DNA of 64,000 nt, from NCBI RefSeq assembly GCF_053078305.1, contig NZ_CP166879.1. One strand, 5' to 3'. The stretch's first letter is position 1. The number at the start of each line of letters is the position of its first letter. Under the pieces are notes generated by a model. The model was not told the origin of the DNA, did not search any database, and worked only from the letters and a program-made list of their open reading frames with translations. The position numbers and the translations under genes were made by a program. Below, in pieces: positions 2,800 through 41,398 of this stretch.

Positions 2800-2919
2800 T
2801 GTAGTTTCCCTGTACTGATAGGTGTTGAGTGCCATTGTAGTGCGATAAGGGTAAGTCATAAACCAGAATTATGTGAAGCTATGCGTTGCTGCCGCTAATC
2901 ATTAGCGTTATAGTGAATC

Positions 2920-14200: not shown

Positions 14201-16342
14201 TCAAAATTCCATTTTCACCGTGAATTGCACTTCACGCGGATCGCCAATCTGATTCCCCAGATTATTTGTGGCGATGGAAGAGGTGTAATACGTTTTATCA
14301 AACAGGTTTTTGACGTTTAATTGCAGTGTGACCGGATACTGCAATTTCATTTTGTATGCGGCGAAGGCATCGGCAACGAAATAGCCTGGCAGATAATAGT
14401 CAGCCCCATTGGTTGCCGAACGACGGCTTACGCCATGTCCACCACCGCCAAACGTCAGTGTGTTATTGCCAGGCATGTTATGAATGTCATAGGTCAGGAA
14501 TAGCGAACCGGTATGACGAGGAACATTCGGCAATGGTTTCCCTGCATAATCAGGATCTTCCAGAACCTTAGCATCGGTATAGCCGTAGCTGGCAATGATA
14601 TTAATGTTTTCAGTTAATGCTCCCGCAAGGTCGACTTCTACCCCTCTTGAACGAACGCGGCCTGCCGTTTTGGCGATGGTTTCATCACCAATACTTTCGG
14701 TATACAACACGTTACGTTTATGGATATCAAACAGCGCAATATCTGCGGTTATACCATCGAACAGCTCGAATTTTGCCCCGACTTCGTAAGCATTAGATGA
14801 TTCCGGTGGAAGATCTCCGATGTAGCTGGCAATTGACGATTGCGGCATAAATGTTTGCGAATAATTAGCAAATAAGGATACCGATGGCGTCAGTTTGTAG
14901 ACTAACCCCAGTTTGGGCGTCCATTGTTCATCGCGGCTGTCAGTATTGACATTAAAAGGACGGCCTTTACCCGCATACTGCGTGTAATACTGATAGCGGA
15001 TCCCGGCGACGGCAATCCAGTTATCGGTCAGATAGAGCGCATCCTGTGCATAAGCTGAGTAGCTCTCCTGTTTGATCGTCTGATCACTGTCCGACGCCGA
15101 AACCGTTGTGCATTTGCTGGTATTGCCATAAACGGGGTTGTAGATATTGAAATCTTTAGCGTTTTTACAGCGAATCATATCTGTGCGCAGAAGATCATAA
15201 TATTCATATGACACCCCACCCAGAATCTCATTATAGAACCCAGCAATATCAACATTCCCTTGCAGATCCGCACGAGTAGAATGCATACGCTGGGTAGATC
15301 CCTGAGTTGCATCAACACGCCGTGTCAGCGTTCCTGTCGTTGCATCATACGCGGTAACGCGAGCCTGATTGTCGCTGTATTTATCCTGGCTGTAGCTGTA
15401 ATCAAAGCGCGCTGTCCACTGGCTATTGAGATGATATTCTGCGTTGAGTTGCGCCAGATCGGACTGACCATCTGTAATATTAAACGGTTCGTCAAAACGT
15501 ATTTTTCGATCAACGTTTACGGGCTGTTTCGTCGTAAGGTCGAAAATCGTTCCACGATCGAACGGAGTTTTATAGTCCCGATGGGAATAGAGCATGGTTA
15601 CTGTTGCATTATCACCAAACCAGGTGAGTGACGGGGCAATAAATGTACTGCGCTCTTTACCGAAGTTTCGCCAGTAATCTTCATCCTGCACTTCCCCCGT
15701 CAGGCGGTATGCCAGCTGAGTGCCTTCAATGGGACCTGTGATATCAAGTTGCCCAGTGCCTCCGCCAAAACTGGAGGACGTGGCTGAGACAGAACCATGG
15801 AATGTTTTTTCCGGGCGCTTGGTCACGACGTTAATCAATCCACCAGGATCGAGAATGCCATACAGCGTGGAGGCCGGACCTTTTAGCACTTCCACACGTT
15901 CTGTGGCGGCGTTGAAACTGCGAGGAAGTACAGTTCGCAGGCCGTTGGTCATGATGGAGCCATCCCGGTTAGCACCAAACCCACGACGTACAAAGGCGTC
16001 CTGAGTTCCGCCTAATGTATTGGTCTGTACCACGTTACTGACGTTATAAAGCGCTTCATCCAGCGTCGTTGCATTCTGATTTTCCAGAACCTGATCGCTA
16101 ACCGTATTGACCACCTGCGGGATATCCAGCATCGGCATATCGGTTAATGTCGCCGTGGAAGTGCTCAGAGGTTGATAACCATCGGTCGCCTCAGTTGCGG
16201 TATTTGCATCCGCTGTAACAGTGATTGTTTCGCCATCTTTGGTCGTTGCAGTGTCGGTTGCATGAATCATTGGTGCTGCAAAGAGCAGTGAAAAGAGCGC
16301 CCGACCTTTGATTCCTGAGAATGAAGGTGTGAACTTAGCCAT
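14201..16342 (-). CDS. TonB-dependent outer-membrane receptor, siderophore-receptor-like (accessory island; possibly fitA)
   Basis: 713 aa; signal peptide (MAKFTPSFSGIKGRALFSLLFAAPMIHA), TonB-box-like ETITVTA, plug then beta-barrel, C-terminal aromatic residue (...FTVKMEF). Confidence 0.9.
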   Translation of the reverse strand: MAKFTPSFSGIKGRALFSLLFAAPMIHATDTATTKDGETITVTADANTATEATDGYQPLSTSTATLTDMPMLDIPQVVNTVSDQVLENQNATTLDEALYNVSNVVQTNTLGGTQDAFVRRGFGANRDGSIMTNGLRTVLPRSFNAATERVEVLKGPASTLYGILDPGGLINVVTKRPEKTFHGSVSATSSSFGGGTGQLDITGPIEGTQLAYRLTGEVQDEDYWRNFGKERSTFIAPSLTWFGDNATVTMLYSHRDYKTPFDRGTIFDLTTKQPVNVDRKIRFDEPFNITDGQSDLAQLNAEYHLNSQWTARFDYSYSQDKYSDNQARVTAYDATTGTLTRRVDATQGSTQRMHSTRADLQGNVDIAGFYNEILGGVSYEYYDLLRTDMIRCKNAKDFNIYNPVYGNTSKCTTVSASDSDQTIKQESYSAYAQDALYLTDNWIAVAGIRYQYYTQYAGKGRPFNVNTDSRDEQWTPKLGLVYKLTPSVSLFANYSQTFMPQSSIASYIGDLPPESSNAYEVGAKFELFDGITADIALFDIHKRNVLYTESIGDETIAKTAGRVRSRGVEVDLAGALTENINIIASYGYTDAKVLEDPDYAGKPLPNVPRHTGSLFLTYDIHNMPGNNTLTFGGGGHGVSRRSATNGADYYLPGYFVADAFAAYKMKLQYPVTLQLNVKNLFDKTYYTSSIATNNLGNQIGDPREVQFTVKMEF

Positions 16343-16715
16343 TTAGTCTGTTATCCCAAAAACTCACGGATTGTCGTGAGTGAAAATTGTTTCTTGTTGC
16401 TCACTAAGCACTATCCGTTTGTTATTTCACCATCGGATATGTAATTGAGAATCATTCAACCATGCGGTAATGTAGTAGTAAATGAGAAATAACAAAAAAT
16501 TGCTACATGTGTTTTTTTGAGAGGTTAATGCAATTCAATTGATGGTAATTTATTAATATTTAATGATTTTATTTTTATCTTTAAAAATATTTCACCTGTT
16601 ATTTACCTTGTTTTTGTATGGCTTTTAACTTCTTGACTACTACATTTTGTGGCGTCAAACTCTCAAAAGAGAATGAGTTTTATTTTTGTTTGTCTTTGAT
16701 TAAGTTGGCGTACAC
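16343..16715. promoter_or_regulatory. Divergent promoter region between the receptor gene and the ABC-transporter operon; contains a Fur-box-like motif
   Basis: 373 bp AT-rich non-coding spacer; around 16438-16459 tatgtaattgagaatcattcaac partially matches the GATAATGATAATCATTATC Fur consensus. Not scored with a PWM. Confidence 0.4.
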
Positions 16716-17525
16716 GTGGCACATAACGCAAAAGGGCAGGGGCTGATCCTCGACAATGTTTCTGCCGGGTATCACAAGAAAATCATTGTTGATGGTGTTT
16801 CTTTCTCCGTTCCCACAGAAAAAATGACCGTTCTGGTTGGGGCAAACGGCTGTGGAAAGTCGACGTTGCTCAGCACCATTGCACGTATCTTGCAACCCAT
16901 GGGCGGCTCAATATTGCTGGATGGTAAAGCGATTCACGAGCAACCAACGAAAGCGTTATCCCGTAGACTTGGGATCTTGCCGCAGTCGCCATTATTGCCG
17001 GAGGGCTTAACCGTTTATGAACTGGTGTCGCGTGGGCGTTTTCCCTGGCAAAATTTCATACGTCAATGGAGCGACGCCGACGAGCAGGCGGTAGAAGAGG
17101 CCCTGAAATTAACCGGTACGCAGGAGTTTGCTCATTTACCTGTTGAAAAACTCTCTGGTGGGCAGCGCCAGCGTTGCTGGATTGCGATGGTGTTGGCGCA
17201 AAAGACGCCTTATATCCTACTGGATGAACCCACAACCTGGCTTGATTTACGTTATCAGGTTGAAATTCTTGAGTTATTACATGATTTAACGCGTCATCAC
17301 GGGCGTACAGTCGTCGTGGTGTTGCATGATCTGAATTTTGCCGTCAATTATGGTGATACGTTGATATTTTTACGCCAGGGGAAAGTGGTGCGTGTGTTGA
17401 ATGAGGGGGAGCATTGCACGCCTGAGCTGGTAAAAGCTGTCTTTGACGTTGATGTTCACGCATCAATAAATACTCTGACGGGAAAGCCGTTCTTCATGCC
17501 GTTTCGTGGTGTAGAAAAAGTATGA
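16716..17525 (+). CDS. ABC transporter ATP-binding protein, iron-siderophore (FepC/FecE-like) type
   Basis: Walker A GANGCGKST, ABC signature LSGGQRQR, Walker B ILLDEPT; GTG start at 16716 is uncertain. Confidence 0.85.
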   Translation: MAHNAKGQGLILDNVSAGYHKKIIVDGVSFSVPTEKMTVLVGANGCGKSTLLSTIARILQPMGGSILLDGKAIHEQPTKALSRRLGILPQSPLLPEGLTVYELVSRGRFPWQNFIRQWSDADEQAVEEALKLTGTQEFAHLPVEKLSGGQRQRCWIAMVLAQKTPYILLDEPTTWLDLRYQVEILELLHDLTRHHGRTVVVVLHDLNFAVNYGDTLIFLRQGKVVRVLNEGEHCTPELVKAVFDVDVHASINTLTGKPFFMPFRGVEKV

Positions 17526-18505
17526 TGCGCACAGGGCTGGTTACTGTAATTTTCCTCACCTTACTGCTGGTGGGATGCGTGGTATATCCAGGGATTGGTG
17601 CCCGATTTATTGCACCACAAACGGTGTTGCAGGCATTTCTTCATTTTGATCCGCAAAACTTCGATCACAGCGTAATTGTAAGACTCCGTTTGCCGCGTTT
17701 AGCGGCAGCATTGCTTACCGGTGCTTCTCTTGGTGTTGCCGGTGCTTTGTTGCAGGCTGTCATTCGTAACCCATTGGGGGAGCCACATATTTTAGGCTTA
17801 AATGCCGGAGCCGCTCTTGCTGTCGTTGCCGCCAGTGCGCTTGGACTGGCCTTTCCGGCTGGACGCCCACTGCTGGCATCTACGGGGGGCGCGTTATTGT
17901 TCCTGTTGATATTGCTGCTTTCCTCCGCAGGGCGTTCAGGGTTAACGCCAATGAAAGTTACTTTATGCGGCGTGGCGCTATCGGCGTTCGTGTCCTCAAT
18001 AACGGCTGCAATCCTGATTCTTGACGAACAAACACTGCTGGCGATGCGGACATGGCTAGCAGGTGATTTAGCGGGGCAGGATTGGGTGACGCTGGGTACG
18101 TCCGTCTGGTTTTCTCTGGGGGGATTTGTGTTAGCCATTTACCTTGCGCCCTCTCTTAACATGTTGGCACTGGGTGATCGCATGGCGCAGGGGCTGGGCG
18201 TCTCGGTACTCCGCACGCGAACATTCACCCTGCTTGCGATCGCGTTGCTCTGTGGCGCAGCCGTATCGATTGCTGGCCCCATTGGTTTTGTCGGCCTGCT
18301 AGTACCGCAGATTGTCCGGCGTCTGGTATCAGCGGATCTGCGCGTTCTGCTCCCTCTTTCAGCTTGTGTCGGCGCGCTTTTGTTATTACTGGCAGATATT
18401 ATTGCTCGGACGCTCTTCACGCCCCATGAGTTAGCGACCGGTGTCATGACGGCGTTAGTTGGTGCGCCTGTTTTTGTCATTATGGCGACGAGGATGTTCA
18501 AATGA
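17522..18505 (+). CDS. ABC transporter permease, FecCD family
   Basis: 327 aa polytopic membrane protein; start overlaps the ATPase stop and its stop overlaps the next start (ATGA), indicating translational coupling. Confidence 0.85.
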   Translation: MMRTGLVTVIFLTLLLVGCVVYPGIGARFIAPQTVLQAFLHFDPQNFDHSVIVRLRLPRLAAALLTGASLGVAGALLQAVIRNPLGEPHILGLNAGAALAVVAASALGLAFPAGRPLLASTGGALLFLLILLLSSAGRSGLTPMKVTLCGVALSAFVSSITAAILILDEQTLLAMRTWLAGDLAGQDWVTLGTSVWFSLGGFVLAIYLAPSLNMLALGDRMAQGLGVSVLRTRTFTLLAIALLCGAAVSIAGPIGFVGLLVPQIVRRLVSADLRVLLPLSACVGALLLLLADIIARTLFTPHELATGVMTALVGAPVFVIMATRMFK

Positions 18506-19551
18506 GTCGGATAATGAACGTCGGGCTACGCCCACTACGTGTTGGTAAGTTTTCGACACTGGTACGCCCTAAAAATCTGGTGTTGCTTGGTGGGCTGTTT
18601 CTGTTTGCGGTTGGAATACTGATATTCGGTCTGATGCATGGTTCTTTTTCTGTCCCGGCATCGGAAGTAGGACGAGCGTTGTTTGCTCCAGAAAACGTAA
18701 GCACAGACGCACGTTATATTGTGCAGGATATTCGCTTGCCGAGAGTCATCATGGCATTGCTATGCGGAGCCATGTTAGGTATGGCGGGGGCCGCGATGCA
18801 ATCCATTGCGCGTAACGGCCTTGCCGATCCTGGTTTAATCGGCGTCAAAGAAGGATGTAGCGTGGCGGTGCTGTGGCTGATTTTCCAGTTTCCAATGCTG
18901 GGAATGTTCTGGCGTCCAGTGGCTGGTCTTGCTGGTGGCTTGTTGGTGGCTTTAATCGTGATTTTTTGTGCACGCGATATTTCCCGCCCGCGATTTGTTC
19001 TGATTGGTATTGGTGTTTCCTGGTTTTTCGCCGCCGGTATCGGTGTATTTATGACCACTGCAGATGTTCGAGATGTACAAACTGCATTGATGTGGTTATC
19101 GGGAAGCCTGCATGCAGCTAACTGGATGTTAGTCGGTATTTCAGCCTGTTGGATGTTGCCAGCCACTCTTTTATTGCTGTTCACCGCCAGGACGGCGGAT
19201 ATCGCTCTGCTTGGTCATCAGGTTGCAACCGGGTTAGGGGTGAATAGTTCTCGTCTGGCGTTGTTACGTGTCGCCGCACCAATAATCCTGACAGCCGTCT
19301 GCGTTTCGTGTGTTGGTAACATCGGTTTTGTCGGATTGATAGCACCCCATATATCACGTTTTATTCTACGTGGCGGGCAGACGACATTACTGCTGGGGAG
19401 CGCCGTATCGGGGGCGTTGTTAGTCATCCTGGCGGATAGCATTGGTCGTTTGGCTTTTTTGCCTTTGCAACTGCCTGCCGGAATCATTATTTCATTGATT
19501 GGTGGACCATTCTTTTTGCTACTGCTCTGGCAGTGCAGGAACAGTTTTTAA
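18502..19551 (+). CDS. ABC transporter permease, FecCD family (second subunit)
   Basis: 349 aa polytopic membrane protein paralogous to the preceding permease. Confidence 0.85.
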   Translation: MSRIMNVGLRPLRVGKFSTLVRPKNLVLLGGLFLFAVGILIFGLMHGSFSVPASEVGRALFAPENVSTDARYIVQDIRLPRVIMALLCGAMLGMAGAAMQSIARNGLADPGLIGVKEGCSVAVLWLIFQFPMLGMFWRPVAGLAGGLLVALIVIFCARDISRPRFVLIGIGVSWFFAAGIGVFMTTADVRDVQTALMWLSGSLHAANWMLVGISACWMLPATLLLLFTARTADIALLGHQVATGLGVNSSRLALLRVAAPIILTAVCVSCVGNIGFVGLIAPHISRFILRGGQTTLLLGSAVSGALLVILADSIGRLAFLPLQLPAGIIISLIGGPFFLLLLWQCRNSF

Positions 19552-19561
19552 TGGGAGTTAT

Positions 19562-20509
19562 ATGCGTTTATTTTTTTCTCTGCTGATACTGTTGTCATTC
19601 TTTGCCCGCGCGACAGAACCTGTTCAGGTCTTTACTGATGATTTAGGGCGCAAAGTCACTGTTCCTGCTCATCCAAAGAGAATTGTCTCTTTACACGATC
19701 TTGATATCACTATTCCTCTGATTGAGCTCGGTGTACCTCCTGTCGCCAGCCACGGGCGAACTCGGCCTGACGGTAGCCATTTCATTCGATCAGGCGCGTT
19801 ATTGACAGGTGTCGACTTTGATAATTCATCGATCGCTTTTATTGGCACCGCTGATATTGATATTGAAGCGATTGTGGCGGCAAAGCCTGACCTGATTATC
19901 ACAGAACCGACCCGTAATACGCCCATTGAACAACTGGAAAAAATTGCGCCCACGGTGAGCATTGATCATCTCAAAGGAGGCGCGCCAGAAATCTACCGCA
20001 AGCTGGCAGAACTGACAGGAACGCAGTCGCAGCTGGCGATACTTGAACGCCGCTATCAGGCACAAATCAATGCGCTGAAGGCGACGCTGGACAGCCAAAA
20101 AATAACGGTATCGGTGATTCAGGCAAATCAGGGAAAAATTAATGTGATGCATAGCTATCATTCGCTGGGGCGGGTATTACGCGATGCTGGTTTTCGCTTT
20201 CCGCCGCTGATTGAGAGCATTCCTGAAGGTGGGCGAATGGATGTGAGCGCGGAGCGTTTACCTGAACTGGATGCCGATTTTGTTTTTGCAACCTGGCGCG
20301 GTGACACCGGTGGTAAACCTCAGGATGAGCTGGCAGCAATGGAAAAAGTCATGCCGGGATGGTGTCAGTTTCTGACTGCCTGTCGTTCCGGGCGTTATGT
20401 GCTGATTTCTCGTGAAGAGGCAATTTCTAACTCCTTTGCATCTCTGGGGCTGATGGCTGCGCAGATACAATCACAAATTGCGGGGCGACCTTTACCGGAG
20501 GCCAAATGA
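19562..20509 (+). CDS. Periplasmic substrate-binding protein (FepB/FhuD-like) of the ABC importer
   Basis: ORF track 19499..20509; preferred start is ATG 19562 (SD gggag) giving signal peptide MRLFFSLLILLSFFARA. Confidence 0.8.
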   Translation: MRLFFSLLILLSFFARATEPVQVFTDDLGRKVTVPAHPKRIVSLHDLDITIPLIELGVPPVASHGRTRPDGSHFIRSGALLTGVDFDNSSIAFIGTADIDIEAIVAAKPDLIITEPTRNTPIEQLEKIAPTVSIDHLKGGAPEIYRKLAELTGTQSQLAILERRYQAQINALKATLDSQKITVSVIQANQGKINVMHSYHSLGRVLRDAGFRFPPLIESIPEGGRMDVSAERLPELDADFVFATWRGDTGGKPQDELAAMEKVMPGWCQFLTACRSGRYVLISREEAISNSFASLGLMAAQIQSQIAGRPLPEAK

Positions 20510-21393
20510 TTCAGAAAGACAAAACGCGGGTTGATATTTATGGTGAGCGTTTTCGCACTCGCGCGAGTCAGTTAACGCCTGGGTTAAGAGCTGTCGCCAG
20601 CTATATTAATGAGCATCGTGAAGTGGTACTCGAGCAAACGGCGATGGAAATTGCGGCCACGTTGAACACTTCCGATGCCACAGTTATCAGGGCTATACAG
20701 GCCCTGGGGTTTGCCGGGCTGCGTGATCTGAAACGCACTCTGGAACAGTGGCTTGGTCCAGCCCTTAGTTCCAGCGAAAAGATGTCTACGACGGTGAGTA
20801 ACTTGACGAGCGATGTTAACACCGCAATCGACTTTGTTCTTGAAGGGCATTTGTATACCTGTAATGTCCTGTCAGAGCCTGAAAACCGCCACGCGCTTGC
20901 GCAAGCGGTAGCGTTGTTGGTACAGGCACGGCAAGTCGCAATTTTTGGCATTGGCGCTTCGGGTATTCTGGCGGACTATACCGCACGACTATTCAACCGC
21001 ATAGGTTTGCCAGCCACGGCACTAAACCGTACGGGTATTGGCCTTGCCGAGCAACTGATCGCGCTTCAACGTGGCGATGTTCTGATCATGATGGCGCAAA
21101 AATCTGCGCACCGGGAAGGGCTGACAACGCTGCGTGAAGCGAGACGGCTGGGGATCCCTGTTATTTTGCTGACAAACGCGCTGGATTCACGTTTTAGCAA
21201 AGACGCCAGTATCGTGATTCATGTTCCGCGCGGGGATGAAAAGGGGAAAACGCCACTACATGGTACGGTATTGTTGTGCCTGGAAATGATTGTCTGGTCG
21301 GTGGCTTCCGCGGTGCCGCAGCGTGCGGTTAAAACCATTAAGCGAATTAACGATTTCCATCGGGGGCTGAAAACGGGAAGAAAGAATGGCTAA
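20506..21393 (+). CDS. RpiR-family transcriptional regulator (N-terminal HTH plus C-terminal SIS phosphosugar-binding-like domain)
   Basis: 295 aa; HTH region (EIAATLNTSDATVIRAIQALGF) and SIS-like region (VAIFGIGASGILADYTARLFNRIG); start overlaps the binding-protein stop. Confidence 0.85.
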   Translation: MIQKDKTRVDIYGERFRTRASQLTPGLRAVASYINEHREVVLEQTAMEIAATLNTSDATVIRAIQALGFAGLRDLKRTLEQWLGPALSSSEKMSTTVSNLTSDVNTAIDFVLEGHLYTCNVLSEPENRHALAQAVALLVQARQVAIFGIGASGILADYTARLFNRIGLPATALNRTGIGLAEQLIALQRGDVLIMMAQKSAHREGLTTLREARRLGIPVILLTNALDSRFSKDASIVIHVPRGDEKGKTPLHGTVLLCLEMIVWSVASAVPQRAVKTIKRINDFHRGLKTGRKNG

Positions 21394-41147: not shown

Positions 41148-41398
41148 GTCGGGATTCCTGTTTTTATACGTCTGGATGTCTAAACTAGCATGAATATTCG
41201 CGGGCGCATCCTGAAGAATTGGCATAAAGCAGAAAATTTTCGCAAATGGCGTGCTGGTGACTTTTTTACTGCGTAAACGCAAGGAAAAGAAAGCAAAGGT
41301 ACGGCAGTATGCAAATAGTAATGAGAACGACTATCAATTCGACGTCGTTTTGATATTATTATGCGCAGATTTTGTGACTTGCGTCCTGGAGATACACA

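Follow-up and report, generated by a model that had tools for sequence, protein, structure and literature searches.

The 373 bp of AT-rich DNA separating the siderophore receptor gene fitA from the divergent fitBCDE-fitR operon of E. coli very probably constitute the control region of the fit island, with two predicted back-to-back σ70 promoters, a Fur operator belonging to each, and a pair of invariant 12-mers as candidate sites for the RpiR-type repressor FitR. The Fur reading of a motif in this spacer, which the original prediction had drawn from the bare sequence, is correct, and it is also already published: repression of fit by Fur and FitR has been reported since 2008 (PMC2593036), and Fur binding at both ends of the spacer was mapped in 2020 (PMC7157518) and 2023 (PMC10164565). 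The candidate FitR operators, a lock on the spacing between them and a structured fitA leader are put forward here as new hypotheses.

The window, a stretch of 64,000 nucleotides from contig NZ_CP166879.1 of assembly GCF_053078305.1, is a segment of an E. coli chromosome: it matches E. coli chromosomes with an identical gene set at 100%. A 7.3-kb insert stands between tolC-nudF-yqiB-cpdA-yqiA-parE and ygiN-mdaB-qseCB. The insert is the fit ferric-siderophore uptake island (fitABCDE-fitR); its gene content, order and insertion site agree with the published description, and the genes carry the published locus tags c3770-c3775 (CFT073) and ECs3912-3917 (Sakai). Of 5426 complete E. coli genomes, 1870 carry the island, with parE/ygiN as its insertion point. 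The fit system was reportedly described by Ouyang and Isaacson in Infection and Immunity in 2006. Its parts lie in the window as follows:

14201-16342, minus strand: fitA (c3775 in CFT073, ECs3917 in Sakai), a TonB-dependent siderophore receptor of 713 amino acids (TIGR01783, 2e-111; RefSeq annotation)
16343-16715: the fitA-fitB spacer, 373 bp, 30% GC, the published bidirectional fit promoter region
16716-21393, plus strand: the fitB-fitC-fitD-fitE-fitR operon (protein families, RefSeq, PMC2593036)
16716-17525, plus strand: fitB, an ABC ATPase, with a GTG start at 16716
plus strand, in the same operon: fitC and fitD, FecCD-type permeases, and fitE, a substrate-binding protein
20506-21393, plus strand: fitR, an RpiR/MurR-type repressor, the last gene of the operon

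The prediction that a divergent, AT-rich control region lies between the receptor gene and the ABC operon is borne out. The edges of the spacer are exact (16340-16342 being the complement of the fitA start codon, and 16716 the first base of the fitB GTG), and its 30% GC is to be compared with 51% for the window, local 200-bp windows dropping to 25-27%. This is the bidirectional promoter of fitA-E/fitR described by Ouyang & Isaacson 2008 (PMC2593036). The CFT073 spacer has the same length, 373 bp, and aligns with that of the window without gaps, at a mean column identity of 97% over 413 columns (the spacer and 20 bp on each side); coordinates were converted from this alignment, the window position being 3624432 minus the CFT073 coordinate.

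The motif that had been singled out, tatgtaattgagaatcattcaac, is present at 16438-16460, one base more than the 16438-16459 originally assigned to it. It is indeed a partial match to the Fur consensus: in its best register, GTAATTGAGAATCATTCAA (16441-16459), it agrees with the classic 19-bp consensus at 12 of 19 positions. Counting consensus matches was dropped as a test of a Fur site: 137 19-mers of the window reach 12/19, and a Fur PWM was therefore built in its place. The PWM derives from 18 canonical CFT073 sites (fhuA, fepA, entS, fepB, entC, fiu, efeU, fhuE, tonB, yncE, sufA, hemP, cirA, mntH, nfeF, chuA, chuT and feoA), taken within +/-30 bp of ChIP-exo or ChIP-seq peak centres. Training used CFT073 coordinates; those of the MG1655 peaks refer to an older record version. 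Scored leave-one-out, the training sites range between 4.3 and 24.6 bits, with a median of 17.7. A scan of both strands of the window, 127,964 positions in all, ranks the motif third:

41317-41335: rank 1, 16.5 bits, the exbB promoter, a positive control held out of training
2894-2912: rank 2, 14.9 bits, between ubiK and ribB
16441-16459, plus strand: rank 3, 14.0 bits, Fur box 1
16669-16687, minus strand: rank 4, 12.6 bits, a second site in the fitA-fitB spacer

The site at 2894-2912 was rejected as a probable false positive, since neither the CFT073 nor the MG1655 ChIP-exo list has a peak at this position. As for the spacer, 4.8% of its dinucleotide shuffles reach a maximum of at least 14.0 bits (P = 0.048), and a pair of sites at or above 14.0 and 12.6 bits arises in 0.26% of them. 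The score of box 1 taken by itself is suggestive: marginally significant and not decisive. Acceptance of box 1 as a functional Fur site comes from conservation and published in vivo binding rather than from the score alone.

Conservation was followed through 39 loci found by a FitA scan of species-representative genomes, all of them with divergent fitA and fitB. The set spans 14 named genera, Escherichia, Enterobacter, Lelliottia, Silvania, Huaxiibacter, Citrobacter, Kosakonia, Kluyvera, Yokenella, Erwinia, Pantoea and Affinibrenneria among them, together with several MAGs, with FitA proteins as little as 71-75% identical in the remotest loci. Alignment of the 39 spacers gives two conserved blocks around a barely alignable centre. 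The box 1 19-mer is identical at 19 of 19 positions in 34 of these species-level loci, from Escherichia to Erwinia.

Binding at box 1 in living cells is a matter of published record. Fur ChIP-seq in CFT073 places one summit at 3607979 (c3775, height 2720) and another at 3607777 (c3774, height 2545), the corresponding heights being 3050 at cirA, 3285 at fepA and 676 at exbB (Banerjee 2020, Table S5A, PMC7157518). On the window, these summits convert to 16453, inside box 1, and to 16655, at the second site, designated box 2. ChIP-exo in CFT073 yields peaks P124 (3607968-3607980) and P123 (3607758-3607770), both of them seen under iron-replete conditions only and each assigned to one transcription unit (Gao 2023, Dataset 2, PMC10164565). 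P124 converts to 16452-16464 (box 1) and P123 to 16662-16674 (box 2). The Sakai ChIP-exo peaks P118 and P117 occupy positions equivalent to those of P124 and P123 after an assumed shift of +128 bp between record versions, the source of which is presumably an older Sakai record 128 bp shorter than the 5,498,578-bp one.

Transcription on both sides of the spacer depends on iron and Fur, as had been anticipated: published fur-mutant and iron-limitation data show derepression in both directions. Transcripts of fitA rise 23-fold in a fur mutant (by qRT-PCR), and iron limitation induces lacZ fusions to both promoters ~3-fold, whether FitR is present or not (PMC2593036, which cites Fur repression as unpublished data). 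RNA-seq of a CFT073 fur mutant puts the increase at 7.0-fold for c3775 and 5.7-fold for c3774 (Banerjee 2020, Table S1, PMC7157518).

The notion that the motif is a chance match and the response of fit to Fur indirect draws on the marginal significance of the sequence-only test. It has to contend, however, with ChIP-seq and ChIP-exo peaks from two laboratories and in two strains that are centred on box 1, and with 19/19 conservation across genera; its probability is vanishingly small, and the published binding data already refute it. A different objection would make the AT-rich spacer mainly a target of H-NS-type silencing, as befits horizontally acquired DNA, with the Fur-like motif incidental. 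A GC content of 25-30% within an accessory island is what such a target would look like, and AT-rich DNA easily gives Fur-like matches (the 137 at 12/19 and the shuffle P of 0.048 speak to this), but here Fur binds directly, its occupancy depends on iron, and few sites in the genome are as strongly occupied; the 19-mer of box 1 is invariant whereas the truly AT-rich centre drifts; and H-NS binding would not exclude Fur control. Silencing by H-NS as the principal function of the spacer is improbable.

It had also been proposed that both divergent transcripts are iron-repressed by way of the one motif. Repression of both by Fur and iron stands, on the strength of the published expression data; the single site is not supported, for Fur binds at two positions ~210 bp apart. 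The two operators are:

16441-16459, plus strand: Fur box 1 (GTAATTGAGAATCATTCAA), supported by the PWM, CFT073 ChIP peaks and conservation, and overlapping the predicted -10 element and start of fitA
16663-16687: Fur box 2, three overlapping PWM matches, two of them 6 bp apart (TCAAAAGAGAATGAGTTTTATTTTT), overlapping the predicted start of the fitB operon

The matches that make up box 2 score 12.6 (minus strand), 10.2 and 9.8 bits. Its position is kept, at 10.5-18.7 bits, in 38 of the 39 loci, Affinibrenneria being the one in which it was not found, and both boxes are positionally conserved in 38 of 39. A single shared Fur box is the arrangement of some compact divergent iron promoters. Box 1 would qualify for that role in being real and strongly Fur-bound, and the fitA and fitB transcripts are both Fur-repressed. 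Against this, ChIP-exo resolves two peaks, separated by ~210 bp, in each of two strains, and ChIP-seq two summits, every one of them with its own transcription unit; box 2, itself conserved, is a PWM site only 28 bp ahead of the fitB start codon; and box 1 stands 256 bp from that codon, which puts it ~200 bp ahead of the predicted fitB promoter. Repression of both promoters from box 1 is, on this evidence, very improbable. Two resolved peaks, each assigned to one transcription unit, point to two Fur operators, one per promoter, rather than one shared box.

The promoters themselves are placed by conservation, and tentatively:

16477-16482, minus strand: predicted fitA -35 element, TTTACT, within an invariant 12-mer
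16454-16462, minus strand: predicted fitA extended -10 element, TGgTTGAAT, 17 bp from TTTACT, with a start at ~16446-16447
16633-16638, plus strand: predicted fitB -35 element, TTGACT, invariant
16656-16661, plus strand: predicted fitB -10 element, CAAACT, 17 bp after TTGACT, with a start at ~16668

The string TTTACT-17-TGnTTGAAT occurs in 39 of 39 loci. On the fitB side, the -10 hexamer at its fixed distance conforms to CAnnnT in all 39 (CAAACT in 18, CATGAT in 9, CAAAAT in 6, others in the remainder); CAnnnT retains the two most important -10 positions. Each predicted promoter agrees with consensus at only 8 of 12 positions. The predicted fitA -10 element is missing the key A at -11, and it falls within box 1, so that its invariance is inseparable from that of the box. 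A simple promoter scan called neither of the predicted fit promoters; the sole promoter-like site that it returned, at 16595-16566 on the minus strand, is unrelated. With respect to the predicted starts, box 1 covers ~-12 to +7 of fitA and box 2 ~-6 to +20 of fitB, and both overlap conserved -10-like elements, which a constant 17 bp separates from -35-like elements that are conserved as well. Such an arrangement would be in keeping with occlusion, the usual mode of Fur repression, each predicted promoter having an operator to itself.

The original prediction also allowed room in the spacer for an RpiR-type regulator. FitR does bind the spacer in vitro: it shifts a 347-bp intergenic fragment in EMSA, and it independently represses both promoters 2-5-fold, the exact Fur and FitR sites being named as unsolved by the authors of that study (PMC2593036). 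Comparison of the 39 spacers yields candidates for the FitR site:

16471-16482, minus strand: the left 12-mer, TTTACTACTACA (plus strand TGTAGTAGTAAA), made up of the predicted fitA -35 element and a TGTAGT half-site; a candidate FitR operator arm
16502-16507, plus strand: a partner half-site, GCTACA, forming TGTAGT-N25-RCTACA
16508-16632: the variable AT-rich centre, constrained in length and drifting in sequence
16633-16644, plus strand: the right 12-mer, TTGACTACTACA, made up of the predicted fitB -35 element and an ACTACA half-site; a candidate FitR operator arm

The two 12-mers are mutually inverted and identical at 12 of 12 positions in every one of the 39 loci. The window contains three matches to the 12-mer with at most one mismatch, against 0.18 expected, and the 39 spacers together hold 109 TGTAGT or ACTACA hexamers, compared with 10.8 +/- 3.5 in shuffles. 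A local partner, NCTACA and mostly RCTACA, follows the start of TGTAGT by 30-31 bp in 29 loci, in 15 of them as exact ACTACA, and is absent in the other 10.

FitR matches the NCBIfam MurR/RpiR families and has an N-terminal HTH followed by a C-terminal SIS domain. Its closest relatives in the PDB, over residues 23-286, are 8K3B (4.1e-15) and 8JU9, which is PaRccR (5e-15); the HTH motif that FitR and RccR have in common is generic for the RpiR family. The hexamer TGTAGT/ACTACA is the experimentally defined half-site of Pseudomonas RccR, a tetramer, and the RccR aceA probe contains TGTAGTAGTC (PMC5489143, PMC11014249). We infer from these correspondences that the invariant 12-mers are candidate FitR operators.

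Another reading holds that the 12-mers are determinants of the -35 element and spacer, or the site of some other factor, and that FitR binds elsewhere in the spacer. The predicted -35 hexamers do lie inside both 12-mers, the published FitR binding is resolved to a 347-bp fragment, the spacing is unlike that of RccR operators, and there are other conserved palindromes in the spacer. However, σ70 promoters do not normally fix six spacer bases over such a range of genera, TGTAGT is a proven RpiR-family half-site of which extra copies are enriched in the spacers, and a site at the -35 element fits the modest repression of both promoters. This reading is a possibility to be taken seriously, though not the one favored here, which is that the 12-mers are the candidate operators.

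Distances between the 12-mers fall into two classes: 20 loci have 161-163 bp, and the other 19 have 183-185 bp. The DNA between them is exactly 151 bp long in 17 loci despite a diverged middle, for which ungapped identity is 36-42% (28-30% when shuffled); the Fur boxes, by contrast, stand at variable distances from the two start codons, with 14 and 16 values observed. Among the 1870 fit-positive E. coli genomes, both flanks of the spacer are found in all and the central 101 bp are detectable in only 797. The 21-bp step between the spacing classes amounts to two helical turns; it follows two clades and may go back to a single indel event. A complex contacting both promoters, a FitR oligomer for example, would be a reasonable explanation of a spacing kept in this way.

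Conservation extends into the predicted 5' leader of the fitA transcript, which would contain two hairpins and an unpaired block between them:

16412-16439, minus strand: hairpin P1, with which the predicted fitA leader begins; 16434-16439 pairs with 16412-16417
16396-16404, minus strand: an unpaired block, conserved in the alignment, GUGAGCAAC in E. coli and GGGCAAUGA in most other genera
16362-16381, minus strand: hairpin P2, just upstream of the fitA Shine-Dalgarno sequence

P1 is seen in covariation: 90.8% of its cells are paired (~32% in slid controls), double-change cells number 36 (11.7 +/- 2.5 in shuffles, none of 500 reaching the observed count), and the sense strand shows U:G pairs. 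From the leader alignment, RNAalifold recovers the outer P1 stem only, the P2 region being misaligned by MAFFT. P2 bears a compensatory A>G/T>C change in CFT073, and in other genera a hairpin of different sequence is there in most single-sequence folds, with weak z-scores for the whole segment. P2 was rejected as an attenuator or terminator: the z-scores are weak, its U-tract is not conserved, and no terminator was called. A simple terminator scan found none, and a scan of 16200-16850 against Rfam with E up to 10 gave only noise, far from any gathering score: the best match, to a plant microRNA model, scored 23 bits where 65 would be required.

The conserved unpaired block is complementary to the seed of RyhB, the sequence of which was verified, with GUGAGCAA as the candidate RyhB-pairing string. 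Duplex energies between RyhB and the leader are no better than those with shuffled leaders (mean z -0.35, not significant). Deletion of ryhB in a fur mutant lowers the induction of c3775 from 7.0- to 4.0-fold in RNA-seq, the values for cirA being 9.8 and 4.9; c3775 was not flagged as RyhB-dependent by the authors (PMC7157518). The structured fitA leader may be a target of RyhB.

These elements suggest the following scheme. The fitA promoter would fire leftward from TTTACT and, 17 bp on, TGgTTGAAT, and the fitB promoter rightward from TTGACT and, again 17 bp on, CAAACT. When iron is replete, Fe2+-Fur sits on box 1, for fitA, and on box 2, for fitBCDE-fitR, presumably blocking RNA polymerase, as the positions of the sites suggest; without Fur, transcription rises by ~6-7-fold (as judged by RNA-seq) to 23-fold (by qRT-PCR). 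FitR would recognise the TGTAGT/ACTACA 12-mers that overlap both predicted -35 elements. With less assurance, the spacing of 163 or 184 bp might mean that a single FitR oligomer, or some other complex, touches both promoters at once. A bolder extension has a single FitR oligomer bridging the -35 half-sites across a spacer that is locked in length and free in sequence, so that a sensor of the sugar-phosphate type would gate an iron island on top of Fur, with the fitA leader perhaps a RyhB target as well; we regard this as unlikely, although not far-fetched. The motif itself serves as a validated positive example, a true Fur site having been picked from sequence alone, and the comparative analysis adds base-level candidates: two Fur boxes, two 12-mers and a length-locked centre, along with a conserved leader structure. 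Their confirmation would tie siderophore uptake, in pathogenic E. coli and in many other Enterobacterales, to a metabolite sensor and possibly to RyhB.

Among known systems, the published E. coli fit promoter is the same locus, with the same gene content and order, and its dual repression by Fur and FitR and its two Fur peaks are in print. There is no difference in kind: the papers provide peak coordinates, and the base-level operators, promoters and FitR site are inferred here. The leader invites comparison with cirA, a receptor mRNA activated by RyhB, and with the RyhB site of sodB, in that it carries a conserved block of the GCAAUG type.

The likeness to RccR and HexR, Pseudomonas regulators of the RpiR family that act at TGTAGT/ACTACA or TTGT-N7-8-ACAA, lies in the hexamer half-site, which the fit spacer has in common with them, and in the protein: FitR has the HTH and SIS architecture of RccR, one of its two joint closest solved relatives. 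The TGTAGTAGTC of the aceA probe is the reverse complement of the core of the fitB-side 12-mer. The arrangement differs. RccR linkers are N3 or N16 within one operator of 15 or 28 bp, whereas in fit the local partner stands at N25 and 163 or 184 bp separate the invariant copies; the fit spacer holds the half-sites with other linkers, and no inverted operator of the short-linker (N3/N16) RccR type was found in it. Judged by sequence, the fit 12-mers resemble the RccR operator in half-site and are not members of the RccR operator type. The regulons also differ, FitR controlling iron uptake and RccR carbon metabolism.

Parallels in overall design are found in the enterobactin promoter regions fepA-fes, fepD-entS and fepB-entC, likewise between back-to-back iron-uptake operons, with Fur boxes over their promoter cores as is predicted for fit; at fepB/entC and fepA/fes, too, there is a separate Fur peak for each direction. 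The fit spacer is longer than these, the PWM scores of its boxes are intermediate (14.0 and 12.6 bits, as against 15-24 bits), and loss of Fur derepresses fit ~6-7-fold, compared with 20- to 700-fold for the ent and fep genes. What fit has in addition is a locus-specific repressor, FitR.

The best match in the window to the Fur position weight matrix (PWM; built from 18 ChIP-centred CFT073 Fur sites) is the exbB Fur box AGTAATGAGAACGACTATC (41317-41335), 64-82 bp upstream of exbB. This box agrees with the published exbB peak and serves as the internal positive control for the PWM scan. The second-best match, TATAACGCTAATGATTAGC (2894-2912, minus strand, 14.9 bits), falls between the divergent genes ubiK and ribB, a short way upstream of the putative FMN riboswitch of ribB. 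The CFT073 and MG1655 peak lists hold no Fur ChIP-exo peak at this second match, which is probably a false positive or else bound by Fur under other conditions only. P125, a Fur ChIP-exo peak of iron-replete CFT073 (3609572-3609584), maps to 14848-14860, within the fitA coding sequence; the top PWM match near it, ATGTTTGCGAATAATTAGC (14851-14869), is weak, at 6.8 bits.

On the fitB side of the spacer, the core of Fur box 2 (16663-16687) is separated from the fitB start by 41-50 bp in Escherichia and Enterobacter, as against 66-106 bp in the fit loci of Citrobacter, Kosakonia, Kluyvera, Yokenella, Erwinia and Pantoea (L030-L054), whose fitB starts are tblastn extrapolations and apparently lie farther downstream, at a conserved ATGCCACAGC. 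Therefore, either the length of the fitB leader is not conserved or the tblastn-based starts are imprecise.

The fitA leader retains a sole conserved single-stranded block in its alignment (A3), at 16396-16404 on the minus strand. The block reads GGGCAAUGA, or GUGAGCAAC/U in E. coli, and complements the RyhB seed, CAUUGCUCAC. In E. coli the register of this pairing is moved by 2 nt, yet 8-9 bp are retained. The energies of the RyhB/fitA-leader duplexes do not differ significantly from those of shuffles. The leader also contains a hairpin, P2:

16362-16381, minus strand, P2 hairpin, directly upstream of the fitA ribosome-binding site

The sequence of P2 varies among genera and its position is constant in most single-sequence folds; in CFT073 it carries a compensatory pair (A>G/T>C). 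UUUUU follows the hairpin in E. coli, a U-tract that is not conserved elsewhere.

Two further features of the spacer were observed. In E. coli, a perfect 11-bp inverted repeat (TTTGTTATTTC at 16418-16428 and GAAATAACAAA at 16486-16496) flanks Fur box 1 (16441-16459) together with the left 12-mer (16471-16482); it has no obvious conservation in other genera. Amid the otherwise drifting AT-rich centre, at 16546-16556, stand a few near-invariant bases (TAA at 16546-16548, T16554 and A16556; consensus TTAATTTATTGAAAAT), which loosely resemble an IHF-type site.
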